From Escherichia phage vB_EcoM_IME392, in the sequence record MH719082.1: a stretch of 64,000 nucleotides of DNA. One strand, given 5' to 3'. Positions within the stretch are counted from its first letter, which is position 1; every line of letters starts with the position of its first letter. The notes under the pieces are model-generated. The model saw nothing but the letters and a program-made list of their open reading frames with translations. It was not told the origin of the DNA and ran no database searches. The position numbers and the translations under genes are program-made. This document shows, in pieces, positions 1 to 25,140 of this stretch.

Positions 1-931
1 TCACATCCAGAGTTGATCCTGGTTGGAACTCTCGACCAACATCTTCCATTACGTATTCTAGAATACTGTGATCGCTATTATAACGAGAAGCAGCATCTTC
101 AAGAGTAGCGATGTAATGCTGGAAGTAGGTACGGATCTTATACCAGGAATTAAGTGATCCGAGATCAATCGTAGTTACCGGAGCTTCATTAATGTCGTCA
201 ACATAAGCTCGGATATTACTTACCTGCTTCTTGATGTTCGACACTTCCGGATACCAGTGGAGATCATCCGTCATCACCACATAGTTGCCCATATCTACTT
301 TGAGCATAGTTGCGATGATTTCCTGGATGATCGTGAACTCCACCAGATTAACGTTAGTCAATCCCCAGATTAGATCATTACTACGGTTGAATACCGTGCA
401 GTCCAGACCACCATTACGGTACTTAAACGATAGAGCAATGTTGCAGATCATATCTGCGGTATTGATGCTGCCGATGCTGTTTACCAAACCTACATCAGAA
501 TCACGGCTGGGATCGTGAATAGTAGCCACGCACTTACGGTTACCCAGGTCAGAACGGAGGCGGTCTGTTACAGTCTGGAGTTGATCGTAGTTATACAGAC
601 GCTCACCGTAAGCACCACGCCAGGTAACCATATCATCGCTAAACATCTTAGCGCGAGGAACCATAATCGACATCCAGTTATCGATTGCATAGCCACCAGA
701 CAGTACCCACAATACTTCCCCCATAATTCCGAGGATATTGTCTTTACGTTCTGGATGAGCCATCCAACGATTAATCGGATTACTTAACTCAACTACAGCA
801 TGACCGATGGATACTACCGCCGAAGAGTTAACAGAAGTTCTGGACTTCTGCAACTCACCAGCCTTATCCATAGTATTGATGCTGTTAACCAGGATTTCAG
901 TATTACTGTTACCGCGAATTACCGAGATCAT
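1..931 (-). CDS. Deoxypyrimidine-monophosphate hydroxymethylase / thymidylate-synthase-family enzyme (partial; 3' end beyond window start)
   Basis: Own translation of the minus strand from ATG 931..929 (overlaps upstream TGA as ATGA). The frame stays open to position 1. ThyA-family motifs are present: ...DLGNRKCVATIHDP..., catalytic-Cys region DMICNIALSFKY (T4 gp42-like rather than ThyA PCH), and LDCTVFNRSNDLIWGL (RSxD motif). It is absent from the ORF track because it runs off the window. Confidence 0.6.
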   Translation of the reverse strand, partial: MISVIRGNSNTEILVNSINTMDKAGELQKSRTSVNSSAVVSIGHAVVELSNPINRWMAHPERKDNILGIMGEVLWVLSGGYAIDNWMSIMVPRAKMFSDDMVTWRGAYGERLYNYDQLQTVTDRLRSDLGNRKCVATIHDPSRDSDVGLVNSIGSINTADMICNIALSFKYRNGGLDCTVFNRSNDLIWGLTNVNLVEFTIIQEIIATMLKVDMGNYVVMTDDLHWYPEVSNIKKQVSNIRAYVDDINEAPVTTIDLGSLNSWYKIRTYFQHYIATLEDAASRYNSDHSILEYVMEDVGREFQPGSTLDV

Positions 932-1662
932 TTAGAGTCCTTACGCACTGAATCAATAGACTTAACTGCAGAGGACAGTAACTCCAGACGGGCCTCCTGA
1001 GGGATCATACCAGATGGCTCATTCAGGATCATAATACCTTTACCAGTATTAGTAAAACGAGCTGTGATTGATCCAGGATACACCGGATGATTCAGAGTTA
1101 CAGAATTACACAACGCAGCACCGAATCGCTCCTCGTAGGCACGCATAGTTACCTTAAGGAGAGTAGAACTGACTGCTACAGAGTATTCCGGATCAACAAC
1201 ACGGAAGTTATTGTCCTCAATACTCTTATCCTTCGTATTGAAGAACAGAGTCATGTTATAATAATCAATAGACTCGTTACTGAGACGTAATGCCTCATCA
1301 CGAGCTTCCTGGCTAGCAAACATACTGTTATGCAGCAGGAAGTAAACGTACGAATCGAATACCGCACGATCACTGACGATCAACTCGCCACGATTGTAGG
1401 CATCCTTGAACATCTGAGTTCGCTGACGAATAAGACGCAGCTGGAACTCTACCGCTTCCATAGGATCTTCCACAGCTAAGCGCAGAATATCCATATGGGA
1501 TGTTACTCCCAGAGGAAGATGGTCACGAGTCTGTACTGCACGGAAGGTACATTCGGTTGATTCTTCCCAGCCTTTAGCCAGAGTAGATTTACCGGTACCC
1601 TGCGCACCAGACATAATTACACTGTAGCCTGGGATACTATAGTCTCTCATTATTCTCTCCAA
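928..1662 (-). CDS. P-loop nucleotide/nucleoside kinase (dNK-like); candidate hydroxymethyl-nucleotide or hydroxymethyl-DNA kinase
   Basis: Walker A GAQGTGKST. ELIVSDRAVFDSYVYF resembles the ERS-xxSDRYxF motif of dCK/dGK-type deoxynucleoside kinases. Start/stop are coupled to the hydroxymethylase gene. Confidence 0.55.
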   Translation of the reverse strand: MERIMRDYSIPGYSVIMSGAQGTGKSTLAKGWEESTECTFRAVQTRDHLPLGVTSHMDILRLAVEDPMEAVEFQLRLIRQRTQMFKDAYNRGELIVSDRAVFDSYVYFLLHNSMFASQEARDEALRLSNESIDYYNMTLFFNTKDKSIEDNNFRVVDPEYSVAVSSTLLKVTMRAYEERFGAALCNSVTLNHPVYPGSITARFTNTGKGIMILNEPSGMIPQEARLELLSSAVKSIDSVRKDSK

Positions 1663-1681
1663 TTAAGAATCTTTCCCACAT

Positions 1682-1713
1682 TTTAACAGCCTTTCAAGAC
1701 CCTAAAAGAGCGG
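1682..1713 (-). promoter_or_regulatory. Conserved promoter-like element (copy 1) upstream of kinase gene
   Basis: Plus-strand TTTAACAGCCTTTCAAGACCCTAAAAGAGCGG. On the transcribed strand this reads ...GGCTGTTAAAATG, an extended -10-like TGnTAAAAT, about 20 nt before the RBS. Confidence 0.5.
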
Positions 1714-1739
1714 ACTAAAAAGGCTGGTGTAAATGTGAA

Positions 1740-2711
1740 CTAGCTAAACTTATACCAGCGAGGTCTCATACGGATCTCGTGATTCAGTTTATGTAGTTTC
1801 GAGAATTCGCAGAATGAGTTGGTGAACATCTGACGAGTATAGAACCGCTCATCCTCCGGCATGAAGTGGAACCATTTCTCCGGCTCCCATGCATACCCGA
1901 AATGAGCACATATCTCTTTGATGTTCTGATACCACCATTCCACGAACATCTGGTAGCCGCAAGGAGGGTTCTGGTCATTAAGCATGTACCATACCCCATC
2001 CTGCGTCCCGGGTCCACATACGATAGCATCGTTATCTGTGTACGCAGTCTCTTTAGAGTAGGACATAGTTGCCCAGCATTGATATGCCATGAACGGACCT
2101 AATCCAGATACCTGTAACAGATGCTCGATGGCCTCGGTAGCGAACGGAGACTTCCATGCCAGTAAGATAGGATCACTGTAGGTCTTCACCAGATAGGCTC
2201 TGGCAGCTACACTGTACTTAATATCCTCTGGACATACTTCATTAGCCATCTTAACTGCTGTGCTAAGGAAGTAGGCATTTGATTGCTGTGGAGCAGTGAA
2301 CGGAGGACCATCCTCATAACGACGTAGCTCTTCACGACCCATGTTATGTATGTCGTCATAGCTCATCTCATAAAGAGGAAGGACTCTGCGGAAGCGATCC
2401 ATATATGAATCACCACGGTTTATCATCTGGAAGAGTACCACGTTAAGCGCCTTACTCTCCCAGCTTAGGGAATCGTTCTCCAGAATGTTCTTGATAGCCC
2501 ATACTGTTTCACGATCGTGCTTACGGAACACGTTAGTGAATTTAAACTTACTAATCCACTTATGTTCTGTCCACGGAGGAGGTAGCTTAAGTATCTCCTT
2601 CTTATAATAAACCTCAGTCCGCTCGCGGTTATACTCCACATACTCACGTAGCTCCTCGGGATTTATCATCCCGAGTAACCCGTCGAAGTGCAAACCTAAC
2701 GGTTTAGACAT
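1740..2711 (-). CDS. Hypothetical protein of the DNA-modification module (323 aa, Trp/Tyr-rich)
   Basis: ORF with an upstream promoter-like element and an RBS. Its position lies between the kinase and the BGT-like gene. No motif is recognised by eye. Confidence 0.45.
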   Translation of the reverse strand: MSKPLGLHFDGLLGMINPEELREYVEYNRERTEVYYKKEILKLPPPWTEHKWISKFKFTNVFRKHDRETVWAIKNILENDSLSWESKALNVVLFQMINRGDSYMDRFRRVLPLYEMSYDDIHNMGREELRRYEDGPPFTAPQQSNAYFLSTAVKMANEVCPEDIKYSVAARAYLVKTYSDPILLAWKSPFATEAIEHLLQVSGLGPFMAYQCWATMSYSKETAYTDNDAIVCGPGTQDGVWYMLNDQNPPCGYQMFVEWWYQNIKEICAHFGYAWEPEKWFHFMPEDERFYTRQMFTNSFCEFSKLHKLNHEIRMRPRWYKFS

Positions 2712-3790
2712 TAAAGAATACCTTCTTTGGTAAAGTAGTCTATTACTTCATCCTGAAGTTCTTGTGCGTAATCCTTGCGCAGATATAGATTCTCATACTG
2801 ATGTTTCAGCAGAGCATCACGATCTTTCAGTTTCTCTGCAATCTCCGCATTACTGGAGACGATCAGAGGAGCCAGTAGCTCTTCGGGGACGCCGCTCCGG
2901 ATTATTGTTCCAGCAGCATCTTTATCCACCAGCATCAGAGTACCAGAGCTCAGGTATTCGTAATAACGGTTAGGTGGGCTGGTATAGAACGAATTACTGG
3001 AGTTCCAGTCTTCGATAAGCAGTACCGCTGCATATTTAGCCACTTCATCCAGCATCTCTGACAGCTTAAACTTAGGCAGCCAGTTAATCGGAGCAGCAGG
3101 TCCCAGCCACTTACGTTCTTTAGGATCCAGCTCTTCCCAGTTTTCCTGCTCGTAGCCGTCAAATCCTGCAAGACCACCAGTATGTTTAGCGATGGACATC
3201 TGAGCTTTGTAGCTCGGCACCGACATAAACAGTTCCAGACCATCTTGCTGGGAGAAGTACTGAGTGAACTTATGGAAGCGGCCTTCACGAGCAGCACCGT
3301 AATACAGCAGGCTATTGTCCGGCTTATCTGACGATCCATAGCGAGGCTTACGACCAGGAACGTAGGTAAGACGGTTCCAGTTAATGTGATGATAGTTCTC
3401 TTCGCTAGGAGAATACTGATTACCCCAGGAAGTACGTTCAAATGCTGCTACAACTTTAAATACAGTAGCTGCGGTGATGTGTCTCCACTGCGGACCCTGG
3501 ATACGCATCTTAGACGAGTAATCCTGTCCAATCCAGTAGAACTTAGCTCCGACATCTGCCTGGTCTACCCAGAACTTATACATCTCGTCGCGGAACTTAC
3601 AGAAGGTAGGAACACCATTGATGGCGATAATCACGTCATATTTAGTGCCATCTTCCATAGCCTTAACGAACTTAGGAGTATCGTCCAACAGGTCAGCTTG
3701 AAGTCCGTAGGCTAACCAGGAAGCCAGAGTATTACTGGCAATGATGGATTTATCGCTGCATGGCGAAAAGTTAGTTACTGCAATCTTCAT
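2711..3790 (-). CDS. DNA beta-glucosyltransferase-like glycosyltransferase (T4 BGT-like, GT-B)
   Basis: N-term MKIAVTNF resembles T4 beta-gt MKIAIINMG. LLYYGAAREGRFHK matches T4 BGT DVIYGGSFRSGQRE. AVLLIEDWNSSNSFYTSPPNRYYEYLSSGTLMLVD matches BGT ALIIGDKNYNDNFITLRVWETMASDAVMLID. Length is 359 aa, against 351 aa for T4 BGT. RBS GGAGAAATTAAACATG. Confidence 0.6.
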   Translation of the reverse strand: MKIAVTNFSPCSDKSIIASNTLASWLAYGLQADLLDDTPKFVKAMEDGTKYDVIIAINGVPTFCKFRDEMYKFWVDQADVGAKFYWIGQDYSSKMRIQGPQWRHITAATVFKVVAAFERTSWGNQYSPSEENYHHINWNRLTYVPGRKPRYGSSDKPDNSLLYYGAAREGRFHKFTQYFSQQDGLELFMSVPSYKAQMSIAKHTGGLAGFDGYEQENWEELDPKERKWLGPAAPINWLPKFKLSEMLDEVAKYAAVLLIEDWNSSNSFYTSPPNRYYEYLSSGTLMLVDKDAAGTIIRSGVPEELLAPLIVSSNAEIAEKLKDRDALLKHQYENLYLRKDYAQELQDEVIDYFTKEGIL

Positions 3791-3815
3791 GTTTAATTTC
3801 TCCGTAGGCTGTCAC

Positions 3816-3848
3816 AATTTAACAGCCTTTTAGCTCATCAAAGAAGCG
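3816..3848 (-). promoter_or_regulatory. Conserved promoter-like element (copy 2) upstream of BGT-like gene
   Basis: CAATTTAACAGCCTTTTAGCTCATCAAAGAAGCG. Overlaps the 3' end of the GT2 gene. Confidence 0.5.
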
Positions 3849-4872
3849 AGTTAGCTGATGCCCAGCTCAGCCAGTTATCGTTGAGATCGGTCAGGTAGGA
3901 GTAATCCTTATTCAGACCGAATACAGTACGGTTAGTTCCGTCGAACTTCATTATACCAGCGCCAGGAGCTCTGATGATTGCATCTTCCGTAGCCAGACAA
4001 TATTCTTTCAAGTATTCCTGGATGTTGGGACGAATACGACGGAAGGAACTATCTGCCGAGTCATAGTGGAACATATCTGCGCAGTGCCACTGTACGTAGG
4101 ATTTATCCGGACGGCTGAGTAGTTCATTACGGGTAACCATATCTTTAGGAGAATATCCCAGCTTAGCTACAGTGACTTCGTGAATACCTCCACCATTAGA
4201 CGAAGTATCCATCAGCCAGTTTTCGTCCCAGTAGAACGAAGTACCAGTACCAGTTACCTGTCCAACCTTCCAGCCCATCGCCATACCTTTAAACAACAGG
4301 TAGCAATCTTCTCCTACGGTCAACTGTTGGAAGGTTATATCGAACAGCCAGAACATCTTCTCACTGGTCTTGACCATGATACCGAGGTCAGTGGCCGGAG
4401 CAGTGTTATTATGTGACTGACGATCGCATAGTTCAACAATCTTGTAGTTACGATTCTTGAAGCTACGGACGAACGCCATCTCAAACTCAGATCCCTCGAA
4501 GTCTATAACGGAACGGTCCAGATGGAAAATATTATCTGCGAACCAGACATCATCATCCACGAAGTAGCAGATGTCTGGACACCAGTTCTGATCCTCCATT
4601 AAAATCCATGCCTTATCAAGAGCATGAGCTCGGATTCTTCCGATTACCGGATTATCGTACTTAGGACGATGCCAGAAATTAAACTGCTCGTCCCCACCGA
4701 ACTGCTCTTCCAGAACTGCCTTATCTTCTTCGGAGGCATCCTGCATAAAGTAGAAGAAACGATACTCGATAGAGTCGTCAGTCTTCTTAGCATCTTTGAA
4801 CGACTGAATCTGACGGAGTACCGACTTCATACGATGATAGGTTGGGATGATAAAAGCCACTTTGGTAGTCAT
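3838..4872 (-). CDS. Family-2 glycosyltransferase (GT-A fold)
   Basis: N-terminal VAFIIPTYHR (GT2 IIPTYN-type motif) and DXD motif YFVDDDVWF. Confidence 0.65.
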   Translation of the reverse strand: MTTKVAFIIPTYHRMKSVLRQIQSFKDAKKTDDSIEYRFFYFMQDASEEDKAVLEEQFGGDEQFNFWHRPKYDNPVIGRIRAHALDKAWILMEDQNWCPDICYFVDDDVWFADNIFHLDRSVIDFEGSEFEMAFVRSFKNRNYKIVELCDRQSHNNTAPATDLGIMVKTSEKMFWLFDITFQQLTVGEDCYLLFKGMAMGWKVGQVTGTGTSFYWDENWLMDTSSNGGGIHEVTVAKLGYSPKDMVTRNELLSRPDKSYVQWHCADMFHYDSADSSFRRIRPNIQEYLKEYCLATEDAIIRAPGAGIMKFDGTNRTVFGLNKDYSYLTDLNDNWLSWASANSLL

Positions 4873-4878
4873 ATTTAT

Positions 4879-5490
4879 TTATCCAATTTGACGAACTAAG
4901 CGAAACCCTTCGGCGTACGGCCACTGGGCAGAATATCCACGTAAGGTGGCTAGAGCTAAGATACTCTGGGTATCTCGGTCTGACTTAATCTGGGAGTCGA
5001 ATCGTCCCATAGCCTGGCACTTACACTCAATATCGTCCTTATTCAGACGCTCGAAGTAATTAGGTTCCATCTGACCGAACTGGGTCAGGGACTCGGCATA
5101 CTCATATTCCAGGATAAGCCAGTTATACGCTCGGAGAGCTACACGAGCAGCATGATTAACTAGTTGATGGTCCTGGTGTAGGCTACTGAACGGAATATAG
5201 ACTACATCCGGCCTGATTTTAGCAACATAGTCCGCAATATCCTTAGCCAATTGCGGAATATCCTTCTGAGTCATACCATCGCCTGTGGAGGCATCGTTAC
5301 GCTCCAGGCAATGTACTTCTTTGATATTCGGATAGACACCGAATGCTGCTTCGGCTTCACCACGACGGGTCTCGTCCGGAGCAGTTACTTCGAGGATGAA
5401 AAATTGGTCGTCGCGGAATTTGCTCATAATACCTCCGCAACCCAGAATCTCATCATCGTGATGTGGGCTGATAATCAATCGTGACTTCAT
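4879..5490 (-). CDS. PIG-L/LmbE-family de-N-acetylase (GlcNAc deacetylase-like)
   Basis: Signature SPHHDDEILGCGG near the N-terminus and the second zinc-ligand motif HQDHQ. The 203-aa size is typical of MshB/BshB/LmbE proteins. Confidence 0.75.
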   Translation of the reverse strand: MKSRLIISPHHDDEILGCGGIMSKFRDDQFFILEVTAPDETRRGEAEAAFGVYPNIKEVHCLERNDASTGDGMTQKDIPQLAKDIADYVAKIRPDVVYIPFSSLHQDHQLVNHAARVALRAYNWLILEYEYAESLTQFGQMEPNYFERLNKDDIECKCQAMGRFDSQIKSDRDTQSILALATLRGYSAQWPYAEGFRLVRQIG

Positions 5491-5496
5491 TATTAA

Positions 5497-5532
5497 TCCT
5501 CGCTACACAAAAATGGGGTTAGGCCGTAGAGA
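5497..5532 (-). terminator. Hairpin + T-run (minus strand) between BCCT and PIG-L genes
   Basis: Minus strand: GGGGTTAGG-TCTCTACGG-CCTAACCCC followed by ATTTTTGTG. Confidence 0.5.
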
Positions 5533-5553
5533 CCTAACCCCGTACGCCTCTGA

Positions 5554-5588
5554 CACCTTAACAGCCTTTTAGGTCATCAAACAGGAGG
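5554..5588 (-). promoter_or_regulatory. Conserved promoter-like element (copy 3) upstream of PIG-L gene
   Basis: CACCTTAACAGCCTTTTAGGTCATCAAACAGGAGG. A hairpin/terminator follows at 5497..5532. Confidence 0.45.
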
Positions 5589-6959
5589 AGTTTCCTTAGC
5601 CAAGAATACTTTAGGTACAAAGATCTTGAGGAACCCGAATAGAATACACAATACCCCAATCAGTACCGGAACAGCCGATACAGCTACCAGAGTCTTCGTT
5701 ACAGTTACTACGTCACCACCTGCCCAGTTAAGTGCAGCAGCAACTACACCCATGCTTACAATCCAGAATACACGAGTTCTAGGAGCGGTCATGGACTCTA
5801 CCGTAATACCTGCTGAGTCATGACCTGTAATAAAGAACAGAATCACAGACACGAGGGTAATTACTGAGAATATCCATCCGCCTGGGAAATTAGCCAGAAG
5901 CTGGAAGATATCCTGAGCACCATGTTGCAAACCGGCTACACCGAATACGGTAAACCATACGTTACTGATAATGGTAGGGAACAGTACACATCCCAGGATC
6001 AGTTCGCGAATAGTACGGCCGTAAGAGATACGTGCCACAAACGCTCCGACGAATAATGCCCAACCTACCCAGGCTGCATAGTAAGCATAAGGCCAGCTAG
6101 CCAGCCATTGCTTCTCTTCAGCAGTACTGCCAATGTTTACCGACATAGGAATAATCTGGAGCAGATAGCTGCCAGAATAGGTGATGGTCTTCCAGAGGTA
6201 TTCAAAGAATGTACCACTTACAGCAACGAATGCCATAATAGATAGAGCTACGATTACATTATATCTGGATAACCACTTAACCCCACGATCGACACCAGTT
6301 ACGGCACTAAGTACAGTGCCCAGAGTCAGGAGTGCGATAATGGTGTAAGGACCAACATCCACACCAAGGAACTCTTTAAATCCAGAACTGATCGGGCCTA
6401 CTGCGTAGACGAACGACAGGGTTAAGCCTATGATGGTCGAGAAGAGTAAGCTTATCGTATTAAGGTTATTCAGAGTTCGGGACTTGAATAACTGATTAAG
6501 CGGACGGTCTTCACCACGTACATGCAGTAAGTACCCGAATGCCACCCCTACGACTGCATACACAGCCCATGCATTAAGTCCCCAGTCAAAGAAGGTAGTT
6601 ACCATATTCTGACGTTCGGACATACCCTCCTGATGATGGTACATAGGTTCGAGTACGCCATAATAAATCATGGATACACCCATACCGGTACTAAACATCA
6701 TAGAGTAATAGGTAAAGCGATTGTATTTCGGAGTACCTTTACCCAGCTTAATGTTACCATGTTTGCTGAATACAAAGAATGCCAGGAACGCCAGGAAGAT
6801 CAGCGAAGACCAGGTAAATATGAATCCATACTGAGATATAAATACAGACTTACTCCAGTCCATTACAGCACCAAACTGGGTGGGAGCAAACATAATGGCG
6901 AGTACAATACCCACCGTTACCAGCACCGTCCCCCAGGTAACTACCTTTGAATCGGACAT
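5577..6959 (-). CDS. BCCT-family (betaine/carnitine/choline) secondary transporter
   Basis: 460-aa polytopic membrane protein. N-terminal FSKHGNIKLG motif and the BCCT signature WPYAYYAAWVGWALFVGAFVARISYGRTIREL (cf. W..FYWAWW.SW.PFVG.FIARIS.GRTIRE). Confidence 0.85.
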   Translation of the reverse strand: MSDSKVVTWGTVLVTVGIVLAIMFAPTQFGAVMDWSKSVFISQYGFIFTWSSLIFLAFLAFFVFSKHGNIKLGKGTPKYNRFTYYSMMFSTGMGVSMIYYGVLEPMYHHQEGMSERQNMVTTFFDWGLNAWAVYAVVGVAFGYLLHVRGEDRPLNQLFKSRTLNNLNTISLLFSTIIGLTLSFVYAVGPISSGFKEFLGVDVGPYTIIALLTLGTVLSAVTGVDRGVKWLSRYNVIVALSIMAFVAVSGTFFEYLWKTITYSGSYLLQIIPMSVNIGSTAEEKQWLASWPYAYYAAWVGWALFVGAFVARISYGRTIRELILGCVLFPTIISNVWFTVFGVAGLQHGAQDIFQLLANFPGGWIFSVITLVSVILFFITGHDSAGITVESMTAPRTRVFWIVSMGVVAAALNWAGGDVVTVTKTLVAVSAVPVLIGVLCILFGFLKIFVPKVFLAKETPPV

Positions 6960-6962
6960 TGA

Positions 6963-7871
6963 TTATTCCTCAATTACGCCCTTAGCGATTAACTGGCGAC
7001 GGACGTATGCGTAGCCAGCAGGTGAAGTAGCGAGGACGATGTCCGCACTACGGAAGTTGGTTTCGATATAGAAGCACTCCTGAAGATCCCGAGTACAGAA
7101 GAGCTCAGTACTCATCATACCCTCGCGTACGTTACATGCATCTGCAACGAATTGCGCAACATCTTCGAAGTGGTCTACCGAATGACTATAGCCGAATCCA
7201 CGGGCATCAGTAGATATAACGTAGTTAGGGCAGTACGGAGTGAAGTCAGTATCTTCGTAGGATTTACCCTGGATAGTGAAGATATCTGCATAGTCCTTGA
7301 ACCCGCTCGGGCTAACCAGAAGATCCCAGGCAACTACCATACCATCGATAACATCTGCCTGAAGTACCAGAGAGGTAGTATATTCGTCCGGTGCCTTATC
7401 GCAGACCAAAATTGGGGAGTCTCCCAGAAGGTCCGACATAGTGCCCGCACCCTTGCCCCCGTGAACACGATCACGGCGTACAAACGCCTCCTGAGGCCTC
7501 TGGTACAGTCTGAACGACGGTACAATCAGCGAATCAGGCAGAGTTCCCAGGTTAGCTTCGGAGCGAAGGCAGGATAATTGGTCAGCTTTAGACCACGTAC
7601 TTTCGATAGCGTGCAGATCGTTACCGATTTTGGTATAGATATAGCTTTCCGGATTACGGCACTTACCCTGATTCAACTCTTCGATAACCGAGTCGAAATA
7701 AGGAAGTCGTACTGATCCCTCACGAGGAGCAGTTAACGCTACTGAGCCATGCTTGGTATGATCCTGATCAACTACCATAACCTGGTCCAGACTTACACCC
7801 ATCTTAAGAATCTGGGATAATGTAGCTGCCGTGTGATTAGTGCAGCCAATCATCAAATCTAACTTCTTCAT
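6963..7871 (-). CDS. Hypothetical protein (302 aa) of the modification module
   Basis: ORF tightly packed between the transporter and the methyltransferase, with a promoter-like element upstream. No confident family assignment. Confidence 0.45.
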   Translation of the reverse strand: MKKLDLMIGCTNHTAATLSQILKMGVSLDQVMVVDQDHTKHGSVALTAPREGSVRLPYFDSVIEELNQGKCRNPESYIYTKIGNDLHAIESTWSKADQLSCLRSEANLGTLPDSLIVPSFRLYQRPQEAFVRRDRVHGGKGAGTMSDLLGDSPILVCDKAPDEYTTSLVLQADVIDGMVVAWDLLVSPSGFKDYADIFTIQGKSYEDTDFTPYCPNYVISTDARGFGYSHSVDHFEDVAQFVADACNVREGMMSTELFCTRDLQECFYIETNFRSADIVLATSPAGYAYVRRQLIAKGVIEE

Positions 7872-7895
7872 TTTAATTCCTCAGTTAACTTGTAC

Positions 7896-7928
7896 AACCT
7901 AACAGCCTTTCGAACCCTAAAAAGAGCG
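7896..7928 (-). promoter_or_regulatory. Conserved promoter-like element (copy 4) upstream of gene 6963..7871
   Basis: ACCTAACAGCCTTTCGAACCCTAAAAAGAGCG. Confidence 0.5.
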
Positions 7929-7972
7929 AAATAATAGATATCTAGCCATCTCGTAAGATGGCTATGTATATA

Positions 7973-8713
7973 TTACTTTAATTCGGAGAGATCTGCGATC
8001 TTCACCTTAGCTGATACATCCCAGATTCCTTCACCAAATCCGGTATCTTCCAGCAGCTTAGGCACTTCACGTTTCTGTACCTTAGATTGCTCGTACTTAA
8101 GCAGAGGAATATTACCGGTCTTATCTGATTGATCCCACAGATAAGTAGCAGCACCGATGTTATCGAACAGTGCGAGATCTGGATTAAACTGGGTAAGGAG
8201 TCGGCAGTCCCAGTGAGACTTATGTTCCTCGAAAGGATTAGTTTCCGTGCCACGCTGACGATACTCATAGTTAGGAGTACCGATCACGATTTTAGCCTTA
8301 GACTGGAATAGCTTAGACAACACCATAAGCCCGTCTTCGCTATCCAGATGCTCCAACACATCCAGCCAGATAATAGTGCCGAATTTATCCAGCTCTTCAA
8401 TAGGAAGATCTTTCAACAGTTCAACGATATTGCAGATATAGATATCGCTATATACATTTACACTGCCTTTGATGTAGTCTTCGCAGATGTCCAGACCTGT
8501 AATCTGACCATCGAATCCTGCGTTACGGAGAGCAAGACCAATTTCTCCACGACCTAATCCCATATCCAGGATTGGCCCGGAGATAATTTCGTTACGGAGC
8601 ATCCATTGGAGAAAGTGCTTCTGGACTAAGTAGGAGGTGCCTCCGTTGCCCAGTGAAGCCTTCGTGACCTTAGTACCAGGAACGAAATTACACTCGATAT
8701 GTTTACCAAACAT
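7973..8713 (-). CDS. SAM-dependent methyltransferase (class I Rossmann)
   Basis: Motif I-like ILDMGLGRGEIGLAL (cf. VLDLGCGTG), and an acidic residue after beta-2 in GLDICED. Confidence 0.55.
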   Translation of the reverse strand: MFGKHIECNFVPGTKVTKASLGNGGTSYLVQKHFLQWMLRNEIISGPILDMGLGRGEIGLALRNAGFDGQITGLDICEDYIKGSVNVYSDIYICNIVELLKDLPIEELDKFGTIIWLDVLEHLDSEDGLMVLSKLFQSKAKIVIGTPNYEYRQRGTETNPFEEHKSHWDCRLLTQFNPDLALFDNIGAATYLWDQSDKTGNIPLLKYEQSKVQKREVPKLLEDTGFGEGIWDVSAKVKIADLSELK

Positions 8714-8736
8714 GTTCTGTCCTCATTAGTTTCGAC

Positions 8737-8770
8737 ACCTTAACAGCCTTTGGAGCCGTAAAAGAAGTGG
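8737..8770 (-). promoter_or_regulatory. Conserved promoter-like element (copy 5) upstream of methyltransferase gene
   Basis: CACCTTAACAGCCTTTGGAGCCGTAAAAGAAGTGG. Preceded, in the direction of transcription, by the terminator at 8781..8812. Confidence 0.5.
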
Positions 8771-8780
8771 TATTGTACAT

Positions 8781-8812
8781 ATTCAAAAATTAGGGTGGCC
8801 GAAGCCACCCTA
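8781..8812 (-). terminator. Rho-independent terminator after topoisomerase medium subunit
   Basis: Minus strand: TAGGGTGGC-UUCG-GCCACCCTA followed by ATTTTTGAAT. Confidence 0.7.
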
Positions 8813-8817
8813 GTTAG

Positions 8818-10065
8818 TTACAGTTTACCGATCATCTTCTGAATCATCTCGTCAGAAGTCTGATTCTCTACCTTAGCACGACGTTCTTGCAGATTAGCAA
8901 TGCGGTCGTCGTGATCTTTCTTACGTAGCATGCTGATGCTACGGCTAAGGCAGGAATTCAACACTTCCTGGGTAATACCGAGAGCTTTGATGATCTGAGC
9001 ATCAGACTTATCCTGCATAACCAGCTCGCCCACTTTAGGAAGAATCTGGTAAATCTCGATGTCTCGGTCAATCTTCTTAAGAGACTCAGTCTTATGGACG
9101 GAGAATGCCTGATTGTAGAGAGCCATCGTGACTGCAATCCAGTCGCGAATACCCATCGTCACCAGTTGACCATTGTAGGCTACCTGGATACGATGCGAGC
9201 GGTTCATGTAAGCAATATTCATGCATGCTTCGTGAACCTCGTCCATATCGATGGTCCTGATACGGGGAGCCTTCATTACTCGGATATAGATCTTATCCTT
9301 GGACATGTTCTTGACCAGGATCTTACCTTCTGATAACCACTTATTCAGGAACCCGATGCGAGGAGTAATTACCTCACCAGACCCGATGATGTCGATGGTG
9401 TCGGTATTGACGCGAGTTACCTTAAGGGTAAGGCCTAAGCGACCTACACCAGTTTCCCATAAGGACTTAAGGTCTGACTTACTCGGCACGATATCATACC
9501 CGTACTGAGCCTTAAGCAGATTATAATCGTCATGCTTGTAGGCTTCCAGCAGACTCTCGTAAGTGAATGCTGGGATACGGGACTGAATACCAGTAGCCCA
9601 TGAGAAGGTACCATACATCAGAGCATACGGAATAGGCACTGGAAGGTATGCGTATTCCATCTTCTCTTCACCTTCAACCTGCGGAACATAGTCCGCTAGA
9701 CCGAAGTAGTATTCTGCACGATCTTCGTTCAGGCCAACCTTCGTGTAACGAGGAGCAGCACCAGGAACTTCTTCCAGCAACTTAACGCCGAAAGATCCCT
9801 GACCATCAATAGCACCGATGCGAGCAAGACGGGAAATAGTCCCATCGATAGACTGGTCACCGAATGGGTGTAGCGACTGAGTTTCTGAGATAGCGCTCAG
9901 AGTCCCCACCAGCTTCCCACGAGCAATGCTATTCAGAGCCATGTAGATACGGCGCTGGGCAGGAATCAGGCCATCGATACCGGGAACTACACGATGAAGA
10001 GCACAATACACACTGTAGTCAGTGTAGTTCTTGGTGATGAATTCAGAAATCTTTACCTGTTCCAT
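8818..10065 (-). CDS. Type II DNA topoisomerase medium subunit (T4 gp52-like, GyrA-type cleavage domain)
   Basis: 415 aa, immediately downstream of the large subunit. The size and position match the T4 gene 39/52 arrangement. Confidence 0.65.
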   Translation of the reverse strand: MEQVKISEFITKNYTDYSVYCALHRVVPGIDGLIPAQRRIYMALNSIARGKLVGTLSAISETQSLHPFGDQSIDGTISRLARIGAIDGQGSFGVKLLEEVPGAAPRYTKVGLNEDRAEYYFGLADYVPQVEGEEKMEYAYLPVPIPYALMYGTFSWATGIQSRIPAFTYESLLEAYKHDDYNLLKAQYGYDIVPSKSDLKSLWETGVGRLGLTLKVTRVNTDTIDIIGSGEVITPRIGFLNKWLSEGKILVKNMSKDKIYIRVMKAPRIRTIDMDEVHEACMNIAYMNRSHRIQVAYNGQLVTMGIRDWIAVTMALYNQAFSVHKTESLKKIDRDIEIYQILPKVGELVMQDKSDAQIIKALGITQEVLNSCLSRSISMLRKKDHDDRIANLQERRAKVENQTSDEMIQKMIGKL

Positions 10066-10067
10066 AA

Positions 10068-12053
10068 TTACTCCTTAAACAGACCGTAGTCTTCTAACAG
10101 TTGGCGACGAGCACGAGATGAGTACAGCAACTTACGAGCGGCATCGAGATGCTCTTCATTATCATCGTAGGTTACCTGGATAAGACGGCGAGATTTCGAG
10201 TTAATGATGAATTGCTCAGTTTCTTCTTCGGTATATGACCCGAGTCCCTTACGACGTTCAACATAGCACTTATCGAAGTCGATCTTATCCTTCTCGTCAG
10301 CGTAGTAGAACTCGGTCTTCTTACCATTCTTAACTACATAGAACGGAGCTTCGAGTTTATACAGACGACCATCTTTAACCAGCTCTGGAGCATGGATAAG
10401 GAAGATTGAGCTAATGAGGTTACTGATGTGCTGACCATCAACATCAAGGTCGGTCATAATGATGATCTTACCGTAACGAGCCTTATCTATGTCAAACATC
10501 TGGCCCATACCACACCCGATAGTATTGATGATCGCCAGCAGCTCTGGGTTATTCACGAATTCCATGATATCCATGGAAGCCGAGTTACGCATCTTACCGC
10601 GAAGAGGAAGCACCGACTGATACTCATTACGCAACTTGATGATATTACCAGAAGCAGACGGACCCTCTGTGATGAACAGCTCACGAAGATCCCAGCGGTC
10701 GGACGGAGATTCGTAGATCTTCGCCATGTCACCATCCATAGCGGCCTTACGGTGATCATCACCCATCACCAGCTTAGACTTAATGAAGTCCATGTTGGAG
10801 AGTTTATTCAGGCTAGCTTTGTAAGCCAGGATCTTGGCAATCAGAGCATCAAAGAATTGCTTATTCTTCTCGTATACCAGGCTGAAGTAGAATGTGAGCT
10901 GACTCAGGCATTCTTTCTCGTAGAAGAAGTACTCGCCATAATAGTCGTAATCGTTGATTTGCTCATCATTCAGCATCAACTTATTCTTAGCCATGATTTC
11001 CCAGTCGCTCCAGGACATACCGAGGCCAGTTAACTTCTCCTTAGTCTGCGAGGAGAATGCTGTACGATAGCTGGAGAAGACGTTAGTGAACACGATCAAT
11101 CCCAGCTTAGCATCACCAACAGTGATAGCAGAGTTAACTTTATTCAGCATACCGCCGAGCGCTCTCGTGACCAGCTTCTCATGCAGACCACCATGCGGGT
11201 TATTGATCAAGTTGATCATGTCTACATGGGAGTAGGACATATTCTTATCAGAGTAGCCCAACTCACCAGAGAAGGTCAGACGATCGTTGAACGAGAACTC
11301 GTACTTGACTGTAGTATCGAGGAACAGCTTCTCATTCTCTGCAACATCACGACGAAAATCCCAGGTAGCCAGAGCTTCACCATTAACGGTGATAGTTGCA
11401 TCACGACCAATCAGGGAGATCTTCAGAGGAACAGTATCCACATCAGACCAGATGCTGCGGTACAGAGTCGCATCAGGCACCATGAAGACTGCTGTGGAGA
11501 AGTCGGTAGCCTTTAACGTCTCGAGCACTTCGTCTGGGAAGCCATCGTCGTGAAGATCATTCAGATCATTGATCACTCCATCGATTTCCATAACACCACG
11601 GCGGAATCCGAGGACATAGAACTGACCTGGCTCCATAGGGATGTGTGCCTTATCTCCCTGCATTACGCGACGGATTACAACGAATCGCTCGGACACTGCG
11701 TTAACAGCGGAGCTACCTACGCCATGGGTACCAGAGGTAATTTCACGGTTATCGCCCAGCTTAGAGCCAGCATGCAGATCTGTTACAGTAGAGAACAGAA
11801 TAGATTTAGACGGATCTTCCGGATCAGCGTAGATAGGAATACCACGTCCGTTATCGGTAACCAACTTGTAGGCTTCACGGTTAATGATCTGCACTAGGTT
11901 AGCATAACCATTAAGCAGCTCGTCCTCCGCATTATTGATTATTTCCTGGAGAGGATGAGTGTAGTTAATCGGGTCACCGAGATACATGGATACGTTCTGA
12001 CGAACGTTATCAGGGTAACGCAATCTTGTGATTTCAATAGCATGTTCTGACAT
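10068..12053 (-). CDS. Type II DNA topoisomerase large subunit (T4 gp39-like, GyrB-type ATPase + TOPRIM)
   Basis: GHKL ATPase motifs EIINNAEDE, DNGRGIP and GTHGVG. TOPRIM IIMTDLDVDGQHI. Confidence 0.85.
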   Translation of the reverse strand: MSEHAIEITRLRYPDNVRQNVSMYLGDPINYTHPLQEIINNAEDELLNGYANLVQIINREAYKLVTDNGRGIPIYADPEDPSKSILFSTVTDLHAGSKLGDNREITSGTHGVGSSAVNAVSERFVVIRRVMQGDKAHIPMEPGQFYVLGFRRGVMEIDGVINDLNDLHDDGFPDEVLETLKATDFSTAVFMVPDATLYRSIWSDVDTVPLKISLIGRDATITVNGEALATWDFRRDVAENEKLFLDTTVKYEFSFNDRLTFSGELGYSDKNMSYSHVDMINLINNPHGGLHEKLVTRALGGMLNKVNSAITVGDAKLGLIVFTNVFSSYRTAFSSQTKEKLTGLGMSWSDWEIMAKNKLMLNDEQINDYDYYGEYFFYEKECLSQLTFYFSLVYEKNKQFFDALIAKILAYKASLNKLSNMDFIKSKLVMGDDHRKAAMDGDMAKIYESPSDRWDLRELFITEGPSASGNIIKLRNEYQSVLPLRGKMRNSASMDIMEFVNNPELLAIINTIGCGMGQMFDIDKARYGKIIIMTDLDVDGQHISNLISSIFLIHAPELVKDGRLYKLEAPFYVVKNGKKTEFYYADEKDKIDFDKCYVERRKGLGSYTEEETEQFIINSKSRRLIQVTYDDNEEHLDAARKLLYSSRARRQLLEDYGLFKE

Positions 12054-12085
12054 AATTTCTCCGGTCAGGTTTAAATAAGCTCACA

Positions 12086-12120
12086 CAGTTTAACAGCCTT
12101 TGGAGGCCTCAAAGGAGCGG
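12086..12120 (-). promoter_or_regulatory. Conserved promoter-like element (copy 6) upstream of topoisomerase large subunit
   Basis: CAGTTTAACAGCCTTTGGAGGCCTCAAAGGAGCGG. Confidence 0.5.
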
Positions 12121-12752
12121 TTCACGAACAGGACTAAATCCTCTACTCTGGACTTATCTACCCACTCTGTTCTTCCTGGTAAGGACCTATTAGACTCGGA
12201 GAAGAAAGATAATCTCACTTTTGATTCTAAATCCACTCCCTCTTCTTTAGGCATCTCGATTAAGATTAGCGGGGTCATACCGATGCCTAATCCATCTAAT
12301 CTTCTTTCTATATTTGAAGTAATCCCATATTTAGCATTTCCAGATTGGTCCAATACGATATAAAAGACCACCTTACCTTCTGGAATGGTAGATATCGCTA
12401 GGTTCTTAATCACAGAGTTAGCGTATTCAGGATTCAACCATCGTTTATGATTTGAAGAGGATATCACTTTAGACATCTTCTTCTGGTAGTTCTCATCTTC
12501 CCACATTTTAATGTTGCGATTAGTCATGGAAACAGACCTAGCCCTGGTGGCGCATTCTGATCTTCCACATGTAGGACGATAGCCCTTAATCACGGATTTA
12601 AAGGAGCAGGGTTTTCCACATGAACATATTTTTACAGGAAAGAATTTTAAGTAATATTCATGCGGAGTTAAGCCATGAGATTTGGCATGGGAGGGAAATG
12701 CCTGGCCTCTTACTTCGGCAGAGCATATTCTACATTTATGATTCATAATCAT
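12090..12752 (-). CDS. Zn-finger / GIY-YIG-like endonuclease (homing-endonuclease-like)
   Basis: Several CxxC pairs at the N-terminus. The C-terminal VVFYIVLDQSGNAKYGITSNIERR fits GIY-(x9-11)-YIG...R. It sits directly upstream of the topoisomerase genes, a known homing-endonuclease hotspot in T4-like phages. Confidence 0.4.
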   Translation of the reverse strand: MIMNHKCRICSAEVRGQAFPSHAKSHGLTPHEYYLKFFPVKICSCGKPCSFKSVIKGYRPTCGRSECATRARSVSMTNRNIKMWEDENYQKKMSKVISSSNHKRWLNPEYANSVIKNLAISTIPEGKVVFYIVLDQSGNAKYGITSNIERRLDGLGIGMTPLILIEMPKEEGVDLESKVRLSFFSESNRSLPGRTEWVDKSRVEDLVLFVNRSFEASKGC

Positions 12753-12990
12753 ACCACTTAGTTAATTCAAGGAAGTCATCCATCGCGGAATTAAAGAAGG
12801 AGTCTATCTCCTTAGCCATTTCCTTGGCGAAGCGACCAGATTCGGTCGACATCACTACCTTAGCCTCGCCCATAGGGTGCTTGACCACTTCGTAGATTCC
12901 CAGATTTGGGTAATACACTATGCTGGATAGGAAGTTTACAGACTTAACCACCACAGTATTGAATTGAGTTACTTCCACCATCTTAATCAT
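12736..12990 (-). CDS. Hypothetical small protein
   Basis: 84-aa ORF in an operon-like array. No recognisable motifs. Confidence 0.35.
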   Translation of the reverse strand: MIKMVEVTQFNTVVVKSVNFLSSIVYYPNLGIYEVVKHPMGEAKVVMSTESGRFAKEMAKEIDSFFNSAMDDFLELTKWYDYES

Positions 12991-13301
12991 GCTTCACCTA
13001 CCATTTTCAGGAAGGTGTCTACCATAATCGGGTCGAAGCTATCGACATCGGCAGTATGCATCAGGGCGGAGAATAATGAGTTAGCCCAGTGCTCCGTAAC
13101 TCCGTCTTTACCTTCGAGAATTACGCAGTACTGATCTTTGGAAGGATGGTACTGAATCTTAGCAACATTGCGATTCGAGGTCAGGACCAAAATCTTGGTT
13201 CCCGAGATAGTGAAGATTCTAGACATATAATAATCCCAAATTAGAAGATCCGCAGCGGGAACGCCCCGCCACCCAAAAGAACGGGCTTTAGGAGGTCCCA
13301 T
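12987..13301 (-). CDS. Hypothetical small protein (true start may be internal)
   Basis: ORF follows a terminator hairpin. Start codon uncertain. Confidence 0.35.
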   Translation of the reverse strand: MGPPKARSFGWRGVPAADLLIWDYYMSRIFTISGTKILVLTSNRNVAKIQYHPSKDQYCVILEGKDGVTEHWANSLFSALMHTADVDSFDPIMVDTFLKMVGEA

Positions 13302-13342
13302 AAATCGTTTTATTTTTCATTATTTGAAAAATAAAATAATCT

Positions 13343-13368
13343 ACACAAAAATGGGGTCCGAAGACCCC
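13343..13368 (-). terminator. Rho-independent terminator after Mre11-Rad50 gene
   Basis: Minus strand: GGGGTC-UUCG-GACCCC followed by ATTTTTGTGTAG. Confidence 0.65.
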
Positions 13369-13373
13369 ATCAA

Positions 13374-24348: not shown

Positions 24349-25140
24349 TCAGTACCGAGGATCAGTATCCTGATAGTCGCGAATTAGGTCATAGACGAGC
24401 ACATCCAGACGAGTAGCATCTTCACGTTTCATGCGGGTAGGTCTGTACATATGGATACATACACAATGCTTAGACCAGACCTTAGCAGTCTGACGCTCCG
24501 TAAGTTCTTTACGGTCGATAATGTACTTCTCGAATGCGTGATAAGAGATAGGCTTTGATACTTCGACATGCTGGCACATATCGAGGAACTGCGGGTAGTC
24601 GTCAGTTAAGAAGCGACTGAATACGTCCTGGTAATAAGAGTAGTTAGGGAATTTACCACCCTGCTCCAGAGATAACGCATGAGTCTCGATCTCCTTCAAC
24701 ATCAGAGCCATAAATTCCTGATTATTGCTGGGAGAGGTCCACATGTTTATCTCGCAGTAATCTAACCGAGGGGAATAAACACGTACCTGAGTCTCGTGAG
24801 GAGTATACGTTTCGTGAGGGCTTCTGATAAAGAGAGTATCAGCATCTACATAGGAGTAACCACGAAGATCCATCATTACCTGAATCTTGAGTCGCAGATA
24901 GTCACATACAGAGGCCATCTTAGCCTTAGTTTTCAGGATATTATACGCCTTCTCCATAATAGGATCTCTGGCGAATAAATCCTGGATCATAACGCAACGG
25001 CAACCTTCGATAATATTCTCTTCGTTATCGATCACCAGTACATGATCATTAGGTCCGTATTTCTGTAAGGACTTAATGCATTCCCGAACATGGATAGGCA
25101 TTTTGGGTCCTACCCAAAGCTGGAAATAATTCTGACTCAT
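24349..25140 (-). CDS. Glycosyltransferase with DXD sugar-binding region (GT32 / Gly_transf_sug-like)
   Basis: N-terminal FQLWVGPKMP (cf. IHQIWIG). DYLRLKIQVMMDLRGYSYVDADTLF matches the D..R..L...GG.Y.D.D region. Confidence 0.5.
   Translation of the reverse strand: MSQNYFQLWVGPKMPIHVRECIKSLQKYGPNDHVLVIDNEENIIEGCRCVMIQDLFARDPIMEKAYNILKTKAKMASVCDYLRLKIQVMMDLRGYSYVDADTLFIRSPHETYTPHETQVRVYSPRLDYCEINMWTSPSNNQEFMALMLKEIETHALSLEQGGKFPNYSYYQDVFSRFLTDDYPQFLDMCQHVEVSKPISYHAFEKYIIDRKELTERQTAKVWSKHCVCIHMYRPTRMKREDATRLDVLVYDLIRDYQDTDPRY

Follow-up and report, generated by a model that had tools for sequence, protein, structure and literature searches.

A transporter and its ATP-grasp-fold partner

The stretch of DNA considered here, henceforth the window, comprises 64,000 nucleotides (nt) of the genome of Escherichia phage vB_EcoM_IME392 (hereafter IME392; sequence record MH719082.1), and coordinates refer to its first letter unless another record or locus is named. 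It contains a gene for a secondary transporter of the BCCT family and, immediately upstream on the same strand, a gene for a protein, termed u302, that is predicted to adopt the ATP-grasp fold. The elements of this pair are as follows (aa, amino acids):

5577-6959, minus strand: BCCT-family secondary transporter, 460 aa, recognized by Pfam, alignment to BetP, functional residues and an exact match to AXY86083.1
6963-7871, minus strand: u302, ATP-grasp-fold protein, 302 aa, AXY86084.1 (annotated as hypothetical), assigned by structure prediction
6967-6971, minus strand: GAGGA, the Shine-Dalgarno sequence of the BCCT gene, read from the sequence and lying within the last u302 codons

The transporter is encoded by an open reading frame (ORF) of 460 codons with an ATG start. 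Its match to the Pfam BCCT profile PF02028 scores 311.6 bits (cutoff 27; E = 1e-92) and covers positions 1-481 of the 485 in the profile, and its orthologs from the related loci L148 and L008 match the same profile. A phmmer search of the PDB aligned its residues 9-446 with the BetP crystal structures (E = 3e-48) and retrieved all solved BCCTs, i.e. BetP, the trimethylamine transporter, BetT, DddT and CaiT. In sequence alignment it is colinear, in a single alignment, with residues 66-544 of the BetP chain, that is, with the twelve-transmembrane-segment core from TM1 to TM12, and is left with short termini, about 8 residues ahead of this core and about 14 behind it. As almost nothing lies outside this core, the osmosensing tails of BetP and BetT are absent. 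The initial annotation had claimed a BCCT-family protein of 460 aa and quoted two motifs, FSKHGNIKLGKG and WPYAYYAAWVGWALFVGAFVARISYGRTIRE, both of which are present; the hidden Markov model score, far above the cutoff, and the full-length BetP alignment bear this claim out.

The genes of the locus (the BCCT, both its neighbors, the kinase and the methyltransferase-like ORF described below) exactly match AXY86079-AXY86085 of IME392 (116,460 bp), where AXY86083.1 bears the name "putative Bcct family transporter". The ortholog in EP_H11, a phage 93% identical to it, is annotated as "high-affinity choline uptake protein BetT". The presence of a BCCT gene in IME392 is already public via annotation, and Vibrio phages carry a BCCT in a lic-type operon (see below), so that the earlier statement that no importer was known from a lytic phage does not stand. 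We found no publication discussing the phage BCCT gene, and it goes unmentioned in the papers that place EP_H11 and IME392 among the SP15/YerA41/RP13-like phages, a group with hypermodified thymidine (PMC12686479; bioRxiv 10.1101/2025.03.26.645540). The protein scores below the cutoffs of all NCBIfam equivalogs (score/cutoff in bits: glycine-betaine BCCT NF047988, 244/650; BetT NF007399, 155/695; CaiT NF002887, 104/541; TIGR00842, 232/407.6). Hence, the names BetT, OpuD and CaiT are not warranted for it, and the EP_H11 ortholog is labeled "BetT / high-affinity choline uptake" without support from the evidence presented here.

u302 has no match in sequence searches of Pfam, NCBIfam, PHROGs and the PDB. 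An exhaustive HMMER scan of 1.84 billion representative proteins yielded seven clusters of its family, and an IMG/VR scan with the family found no relatives. An AlphaFold model built from eight sequences, including divergent homologs, attains a predicted local-distance difference test score (pLDDT) of 79 and a predicted template-modeling score (pTM) of 0.83, and in this model u302 adopts an ATP-grasp fold. The invariant residues of the family (K94, K139, E255, E269, R273 and D276, together with the motif (Y/F)(I/V)E(T/S)N(F/Q)R, here YIETNFR) would be compatible with the Lys and Glu-x-Asn residues of the Mg/ATP site in ATP-grasp enzymes. Most members of the ATP-grasp superfamily are carboxylate-amine ligases.

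The u302 stop codon (6963-6965) lies 3 nt from the ATG of the BCCT gene (6957-6959). The two genes abut or overlap in the group of IME392, EP_H11, L061 and L062 and also in L008, L148 and L063; junctions with a GAGG/AGGAG-type motif and either a gap of at most 3 nt or an overlap are seen in L061, L062, L148, L063, L149 and L008. The surrounding gene order varies by lineage and the u302-BCCT pair is retained. In L149 (Logan SRR14039628, 204-1785), which represents a sixth lineage beside the five divergent ones with the abutting or overlapping pair, the most divergent u302 homolog is followed, 1 nt on, by an importer of the major facilitator superfamily (MFS) instead of a BCCT (Sugar_tr, 128.9 bits; best match to the aromatic-acid/H+ symporter family). 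The u302 family pairs with importers of two unrelated superfamilies, and the L149 arrangement suggests that an importer-ligase cassette behaves as a swappable unit. The plausible substrates of the BCCT and of the L149 MFS importer would share a carboxylate, the group activated by ATP-grasp ligases; since the partner is an ATP-grasp protein and L149 exchanges the BCCT for an aromatic-acid importer, the carboxylate is the probable reactive group of the substrate.

Substrate site, ancestry and bacterial relatives of the transporter

Functional residues were mapped from BetP of Corynebacterium glutamicum (PDB 2WIT, 4AIN, 3P03), with the numbering anchored on the G153D crystal construct. The aromatic box of BetP (W189, W194, Y197, W374, W377), whose residues in TM4 and TM8 hold the quaternary ammonium or sulfonium head group, corresponds to W125, W130, Y133, W296 and W299 of the phage protein and is invariant across every phage and bacterial relative examined. 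The glycine-rich, unwound TM3 motif GMGIG of BetP reads GMGVS in the phage (residues 91-95), F380 in TM8 is F302, and the TM8-loop signature ARISRGRSIRE is ARISYGRTIRE (residues 308-318). The phage transporter thus shares with BetP the GMG of TM3, the aromatic box, F380 and the ARISxGRTIRE signature at an overall identity of about 30%, whereas the osmosensing N- and C-terminal domains of BetP have no counterpart in it. With E. coli BetT, a choline:H+ symporter, and CaiT, a carnitine/gamma-butyrobetaine antiporter, it has the TM4 and TM8 aromatics in common; however, BetT has an Asp at position 153, where the phage has Ser, and long regulatory tails, and CaiT lacks the GMG and the Na2 residues.

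Against this conserved framework, three positions are changed relative to BetP throughout the clade to which the phage proteins belong: F369 and W373 are each replaced by A, N or S, and T250 by L or I (Ala, Ala and Leu, respectively, in the phage). The small residues in place of the bulky F369 and W373 fit a ligand bigger than glycine betaine. The phage proteins and their nearest bacterial relative further have Ser for G153 and Y/F at both 371 and 156, whereas the operon-embedded bacterial members described below have E at 371, T at 156 and G at 153. Specific to the phages, and common to all three deep phage lineages, are S468G and A469H at the Na2 site of BetP, giving the motif TGHDS (codons T377-G378-H379 at 5822-5830); the bacterial relatives, BetP and the H+-coupled E. 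coli BetT keep Ser-Ala. Of the positions that in BetP provide the Na2 ligands (T467, S468) and the Na1' ligands (T246, T250, F380), the phage protein retains T377, T174 and F302, whereas S468 is Gly378 and T250 is Leu178, with the phage-specific His379 adjacent. The Gly-His pair was considered as a signature of H+ coupling and rejected, as E. coli BetT, a proton symporter, retains Ser-Ala there; because that protein keeps TSADS, the coupling ion cannot be read from the sequence.

The database neighbors of the transporter comprise a few phage sequences at 87-98% identity and three proteins at 40-44%, after which scores fall from 341 to 220 bits. IMG/VR scans with the subfamily found no relatives. 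Other BCCT matches in the phage collection, mostly in unannotated records at either extreme of length that bear the names of Listeria, Staphylococcus or Acinetobacter phages, were set aside as probable bacterial DNA, not individually checked. In a neighbor-joining tree (455 columns, 100 bootstraps), in which Paracoccus and Billgrantia were disregarded for their long odd branches, probably arising from ORF extraction, the phage BCCTs are monophyletic (86% bootstrap) with only about 42% identity among themselves. Their sister is a protein from the metagenome-assembled genome (MAG) of an uncultured Neisseria (98%), and both lie within a clade (93%) that contains the short BCCTs of Halomonadaceae, Marinobacterium, Zobellella/Oceanimonas and other bacteria. 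A membership in the BetT, OpuD or CaiT subfamilies, which the initial annotation had envisaged as a guide to the substrate, was not recovered; what emerged is a distinct short subfamily with bacterial members in carnitine/acylcarnitine operons.

The gene is under strong constraint. Between IME392 and L061/L062 the BCCT retains 89-90% amino acid identity, compared with 61-83% for the other eight genes of the block; at the distance of L061 its rate of nonsynonymous substitution (dN = 0.075) is the lowest of the nine (the others range from 0.13 to 0.30), and the ratio to the synonymous rate (dN/dS) is 0.03-0.07 relative to L061/L062. Its GC content is the same as that of the flanks and the rest of the genome. 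It is only 26% and 25% identical, respectively, to BetT and CaiT of the E. coli hosts and so is not host-derived. It is an old phage gene, inherited vertically and held under strong constraint, and not a recent acquisition from a host.

The bacterial members of the clade offer contextual clues to the substrate. In 25-28 of the 37 bacterial short-BCCT loci, the transporter gene closes a series that runs BKACE, 3-hydroxyacyl-CoA-dehydrogenase type (3HCDH), 4HBT thioesterase, Abhydrolase_3 esterase and BCCT, and these BKACE-to-BCCT operons are accompanied by a divergent AraC/DJ-1 regulator. Such operon-embedded loci (L009, L012, L065-L088) occur in Halomonadaceae, Marinobacterium, Zobellella, Oceanimonas and others. 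Their gene content is that of the Pseudomonas aeruginosa carnitine/short-acylcarnitine operon caiX-cdhCAB-hocS with CdhR (PMC5806209), and there is a parallel in Acinetobacter baumannii, where carnitine and C2-C8 acylcarnitines are taken up and cleaved by a BCCT together with a cytoplasmic hydrolase encoded next to it (PMC13631058). As an observation in its own right, the short BCCT subfamily of about 460 aa next to the Abhydrolase_3 esterase in cdhCAB-type carnitine operons is a source of candidate carnitine/acylcarnitine importers; we found no characterized member among these bacterial short BCCTs.

The bacterial proteins (Halomonas, Zobellella, Marinobacterium, etc.; 450-473 aa) resemble the phage transporter in belonging to the same clade, in the small residues at 369 and 373 and in being encoded beside a putative enzyme that processes the imported molecule. 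They differ in sequence (37-45% identity) and in the partners themselves, which are the esterase and dehydrogenase set in the bacteria and the ATP-grasp protein (with or without PIG-L) in the phages. Neither the phage BCCT genes nor the Neisseria MAG locus has the neighboring genes for BKACE, carnitine dehydrogenase, thioesterase, esterase and a CdhR-type regulator. By guilt-by-association, the best guess for the ancestral substrate of the short-BCCT clade is a carnitine-like compound and, by the same analogy, the best guess for the phage BCCT, which we offer as such and not as a finding, is a carboxy-betaine of the carnitine/betaine type.

Thymidine-modification genes around the pair

On either side of the pair, the IME392 block contains the following elements, among them the core of a route via 5-hydroxymethyldeoxyuridine (5-hmdU):

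7973-8713, minus strand: weak class-I S-adenosylmethionine (SAM)-methyltransferase-like ORF, best Pfam score 24.5 bits, below the cutoff of 27
5515-5541, minus strand: intrinsic-terminator-like hairpin with an 11-bp stem (7 GC pairs) and a T-tract, from a scan and the sequence
4879-5490, minus strand: PIG-L/LmbE-family metallo-deacetylase, 203 aa, AXY86082.1 (PF02585, 52.9 bits, cutoff 28.2)
3838-4872, minus strand: u344, an unknown block protein of 344 aa with a 26%-identical paralog in the variable cassette of L061/L062 (tblastn)
2711-3790, minus strand: u359, an unknown protein of 359 aa, its stop sharing 1 nt with the start of the 5-hmdU DNA kinase gene
1740-2711, minus strand: 5-hmdU DNA kinase with an HMUDK helical domain, 323 aa (PF18723, 122.3 bits)
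928-1662, minus strand: AAA_28 P-loop kinase (Pfam, 38.2 bits; phrog_2107, thymidylate kinase-like)
2-931, minus strand: 3' part of a ThyA-like gene (putative hydroxymethylase of deoxyuridine monophosphate, dUMP), identified by tblastn and running off the window start

The 5-hmdU DNA kinase and the ThyA-like gene, a homolog of dUMP hydroxymethylase with 96% identity to the "thymidylate synthase" of EP_H11 (tblastn), confirm that the transporter gene lies in a DNA-modification module, as initially proposed. The more specific placement between a de-N-acetylase and a methyltransferase holds for the downstream side, where the PIG-L gene lies; the upstream neighbor is the ATP-grasp protein, and the methyltransferase-like ORF is one gene beyond it and is not conserved in the module. 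The PIG-L protein has the metal-site motifs PHHDDE and HQDH, finds TT1542 and diacetylchitobiose deacetylase in the PDB, and has a 46%-identical ortholog in L008 whose gene overlaps that of the BCCT. Homologs of u359 are found only in IME392 and L061, and neither u344 nor u359 matches anything in Pfam, NCBIfam, PHROGs or the PDB, nor HMUD2 or a 364-aa protein of L148. The hairpin directly follows the BCCT stop, ahead of PIG-L, and is kept together with its T-tract in EP_H11, L061 and L062 despite synonymous divergence (dS) above 1 between them. A scan for sigma-70 promoters performed no better than on shuffled sequence (11 sites versus 12.2 expected).

Homologs of the HMUDK occur in RP13, ViI-like and other phages, that of RP13 (LC554890, 87825-88763) being 32% identical. 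IME392 and EP_H11 fall in a phage group reported or predicted to have heavily modified thymidine (PMC12686479; bioRxiv 10.1101/2025.03.26.645540), the modification in the virion DNA of these two being predicted only (bioRxiv 10.1101/2025.03.26.645540). The same preprint states that 5-HMUDK "could not be detected", yet lists aGPT-Pplase I for RP13, EP_H11 and IME392; aGPT-Pplase I of that work and the PF18723 kinase may be two names for one gene family. The same HMUDK query also matches a CAU_YEP3 protein annotated as "aGPT pyrophosphorylase clade 1".

The gene order in IME392, EP_H11 and L061 is GyrB, GyrA, a variable cassette, ATP-grasp, BCCT, terminator, PIG-L, u344 and u359, followed by the 5-hmdU DNA kinase, the AAA_28 kinase, the ThyA-like gene and HD. 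The slot between GyrA and the ATP-grasp gene is occupied by the single weak methyltransferase-like ORF in IME392 and EP_H11 and by a five-gene cassette in L061 (3674-7578) and L062 (1808-5712), which encodes a DXD glycosyltransferase-like protein, the u344 paralog, a phosphatidylserine-decarboxylase-like protein (31.3 bits) and unknowns of 286 and 151 aa; this slot may possibly diversify the modification chemistry. Elsewhere in the window, a 263-aa ORF (24349-25140, minus strand) has a sub-threshold match to the DXD glycosyltransferase family Gly_transf_sug (21 bits, cutoff 23), the same family assignment as for the first L061 cassette gene, and is possibly a further DNA-modification enzyme.

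In L008, overlapping ATP-grasp, BCCT and PIG-L genes lie ahead of GyrB, an intein-bearing GyrA, AAA_28, ThyA-like and HD. The GyrA/topoisomerase-IV-A homolog of this locus (9312-11708) is split by an HNH-endonuclease intein, and the IME392 ortholog (8818-10065) is uninterrupted. In L148 (Logan SRR30869050), the order is AAA_28, ThyA-like, HD, a primase-like gene, ATP-grasp and BCCT, and then a hypermodification cluster (2666-14536) coding for a family 4 glycosyltransferase (GT4), a cupin of the mannose-6-phosphate-isomerase type, a cytidylyltransferase, ADDT (amino acid:DNA transferase; 34.1 bits, cutoff 26.2), an inositol-3-phosphate synthase (213.7 bits to mycothiol_INO1), HMUD2 and HMUDK. 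The composition of this cluster hints at a thymidine modification that may contain inositol or a sugar phosphate. In all three long contigs the ATP-grasp/BCCT pair is found within or beside genes of the hmdU pathway.

A different setting is seen in the Vibrio phages 1.031.O (L144, MG592415, 7824-10822) and 150E35-1 (L145, OX241562, 7827-10828), with genomes of about 150-160 kb, where three overlapping genes make up a lic-like choline pathway with a presumed transfer of phosphocholine. A cytidylyltransferase (36.7 bits) shares a fused gene with a choline-kinase/APH-like domain of sub-cutoff score (26.3 bits), and between this fusion gene and LicD (23.3 bits, cutoff 22.6; best NCBIfam match cholinephosphotransferase) lies a BCCT of 411 aa (156 bits) annotated as "TMhelix protein". 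Phage 1.031.O was considered as an hmdU-kinase phage and rejected, as its whole genome has no HMUDK or ThyA-like homolog. With hmdU genes not detected there, it provides no independent link between BCCTs and DNA modification.

A possible route from imported betaine to decorated thymidine

Several known systems offer precedents for parts of the arrangement. IME392 has in common with the thymidine hypermodification pathways that lead from 5-hmdU through HMUDK to a transferase (ViI, M6, PaMx11, phiW-14, SP10) a ThyA-like gene, a nucleotide kinase and an HMUDK; SP-15, YerA41 and Carin-5 represent the sugar-bearing thymidine type, and IME392 belongs to the RP13/SP15-like group (PMC8989533; PMC12686479). 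Two reference papers on thymidine hypermodification make no mention of a transporter, BCCT, choline, deacetylase or ATP-grasp; the known pathways append endogenous amino acids and polyamines, and sugars are also among the appended groups (PMC5889632, PMC8989533). The lic operon (importer LicB, kinase LicA, cytidylyltransferase LicC, transferase LicD) resembles the IME392 locus in encoding an importer together with activating and attaching enzymes (PMC8890701). In its Vibrio-phage version the importer is a BCCT, only about 25% identical to that of IME392 and not closely related to it, and lic systems use a kinase, a cytidylyltransferase and LicD where IME392 has the ATP-grasp protein and PIG-L. 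In the MshB/MshC and BshB/BshC systems a GlcNAc-X conjugate is deacetylated and the freed amine is then acylated. IME392 likewise combines a PIG-L deacetylase with a putative ATP-dependent ligase, and L148, with its additional GT4 and inositol-phosphate synthase, recalls mycothiol synthesis; however, MshC is tRNA-synthetase-like whereas the IME392 ligase would be of the ATP-grasp type. The likeness is one of logic only.

These observations lead to the proposal that transporter and ATP-grasp enzyme act in series in a DNA-modification pathway, the former supplying the latter, a reading for and against which we regard the genomic evidence as about evenly balanced. Its steps would be as follows. 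The phage would place an unregulated BCCT in the host inner membrane, the conserved residues pointing to transport competence, and this carrier would import a quaternary-ammonium compound, most likely a carboxy-betaine; the clade context suggests one akin to carnitine, gamma-butyrobetaine or glycine betaine. The ATP-grasp enzyme, to judge from its fold, the coupling of the genes and the L149 swap, would convert the imported carboxylate into an acyl-phosphate for ligation with an amine. Genomic location and the MshB/MshC-type logic point to an amino sugar or amino-alkyl group on hypermodified thymidine as the predicted acceptor, and PIG-L may unmask the amine of a glucosamine (GlcN) acceptor. 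The product would be a permanent cationic charge on the phage DNA. Cationic hypermodifications are a general trend, with which a fixed positive charge on DNA is consistent. We infer from this combination of clues the direction of transport, the identity of the substrate, the use of the imported molecule by the ATP-grasp enzyme and DNA as the final acceptor. The proposal in its full form, in which the hypermodification is built in part from an environmental betaine that the phage itself imports via the BCCT and grafts with a new family of ATP-grasp ligases, is put forward tentatively and is rather unlikely to hold in every part.

The initial annotation had likewise seen the transporter as supplying a substrate, and the conserved synteny argues in favor of an input to a phage pathway over a stray host gene; its second suggestion, a reprogramming of host osmolyte uptake, is the weaker of the two. 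Where it had the imported amine act as the nucleophile, in the manner of ethanolamine, our reading departs from it: quaternary ammonium groups are not nucleophiles by textbook chemistry, which makes this role unlikely for the classic BCCT substrates, and the partner is an ATP-grasp protein.

Several observations weigh against the proposed route to DNA. The three long contigs come from related phages, so that the co-location with hmdU genes is not fully independent evidence, and Vibrio phage 1.031.O, with a BCCT in a lic context and no detectable hmdU genes, indicates that the targets of phage BCCTs can be other than DNA. Kinases, e.g. ITPK1, are also found among the ATP-grasp enzymes, and no transporter gene follows the u302 homologs of L146 and L147 on their contigs of about 1.3 kb. 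The phage BCCTs differ from the carnitine-operon clade at pocket positions 153, 156 and 371 (BetP numbering), and their substrate may therefore have shifted. The conserved terminator divides the BCCT from PIG-L in the IME392 group, and L148 has no adjacent PIG-L, which makes the deacetylation step the weakest link. Finally, no DNA transferase of the ADDT type (ADDT / aGPT-Pplase2) was recognized by Pfam or NCBIfam at window positions 1-12,000.

The same evidence can be read in other ways. That the importer and ATP-grasp enzyme, with or without PIG-L, serve a target other than DNA is unlikely in our estimate; possible candidates are lipopolysaccharide (LPS) or peptidoglycan sugars of the host envelope, whose alteration could exclude superinfecting phages or mask receptors, as well as a glycan of the virion or a small soluble compound. 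The succession of a PIG-L and a ligase echoes the small-molecule logic of MshB/MshC and BshB/BshC, the GT4 and inositol-phosphate synthase of L148 resemble mycothiol genes, and the Vibrio-phage BCCT stands beside LicD, a family normally decorating LPS or teichoic acids (PMC8890701), in a genome where hmdU genes were not detected. Yet the pair sits in or next to hmdU-pathway genes in all three long contigs despite their differing order, and the sugar-bearing thymidine modifications of this phage group would also need a glycosyltransferase, Ino1 and a cytidylyltransferase (PMC12686479). A constitutive importer of compatible solutes, raising burst size through the osmotic or metabolic fitness of the host (e.g. 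in gut or manure) and owing nothing to its neighbors, would leave unexplained both the translational coupling with a rare ATP-grasp enzyme, conserved in at least five lineages, and the replacement by an aromatic-acid importer in L149, and E. coli already has BetT and CaiT and, by textbook knowledge, ProP and ProU. We consider it distinctly unlikely, even though BCCTs are the classic osmoprotectant carriers of textbooks, the phage protein has no regulatory domain at either terminus, terminator-like hairpins bracket its gene and acylcarnitines are reported to be available to gut Enterobacteriaceae (PMC10694575).

Very unlikely, in turn, is a choline-specific carrier of the BetT type that supplies choline or phosphocholine. 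The GenBank annotation of EP_H11, the analogy with the Vibrio-phage lic operon and the CTP_transf_like gene near the L148 pair would favor it; however, the protein is as distant from E. coli BetT (26% identity) and as far below the NCBIfam BetT cutoff as stated above, BetP position 153 is Asp in BetT but Ser in the phage and Gly in the bacterial relatives, and neither a choline kinase nor LicD was recognized by Pfam or NCBIfam in the block within the window. A role other than import (superinfection exclusion, lysis timing, export or a decaying "moron") has nothing specific in its favor beyond the general experience that phage membrane proteins are often so used, and is highly improbable for a protein whose substrate box and 12-TM core have been kept by strong purifying selection in phages that share just 42% identity.

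Compared with these, the coupled import and ligation of a carboxylate for DNA modification draws on an arrangement that appears undescribed, namely a conserved cassette of an ATP-grasp protein and an importer in thymidine-hypermodification clusters, together with a phage-specific BCCT clade. Were the transporter a mere osmolyte carrier, it would still be a rare and strongly conserved auxiliary transporter gene in a virulent coliphage, though of modest interest. In either case, this short BCCT clade, uncharacterized so far, poses a problem of specificity with its enlarged pocket and the odd Gly-His of the phage proteins at Na2. If the proposal is true, the phage DNA would bear quaternary-ammonium charge, its restriction resistance or packaging would depend on the content of the medium or gut lumen, restriction resistance and sequencing behavior would vary with the medium, and an orphan ATP-grasp family would gain a function. 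Cassettes of the L149 type would then let phages diversify the decoration of their DNA with exogenous acids. Thus, an importer-ligase pair, if it feeds DNA modification, would represent a new principle, in which a virus supplies the chemistry of its DNA from an external metabolite.

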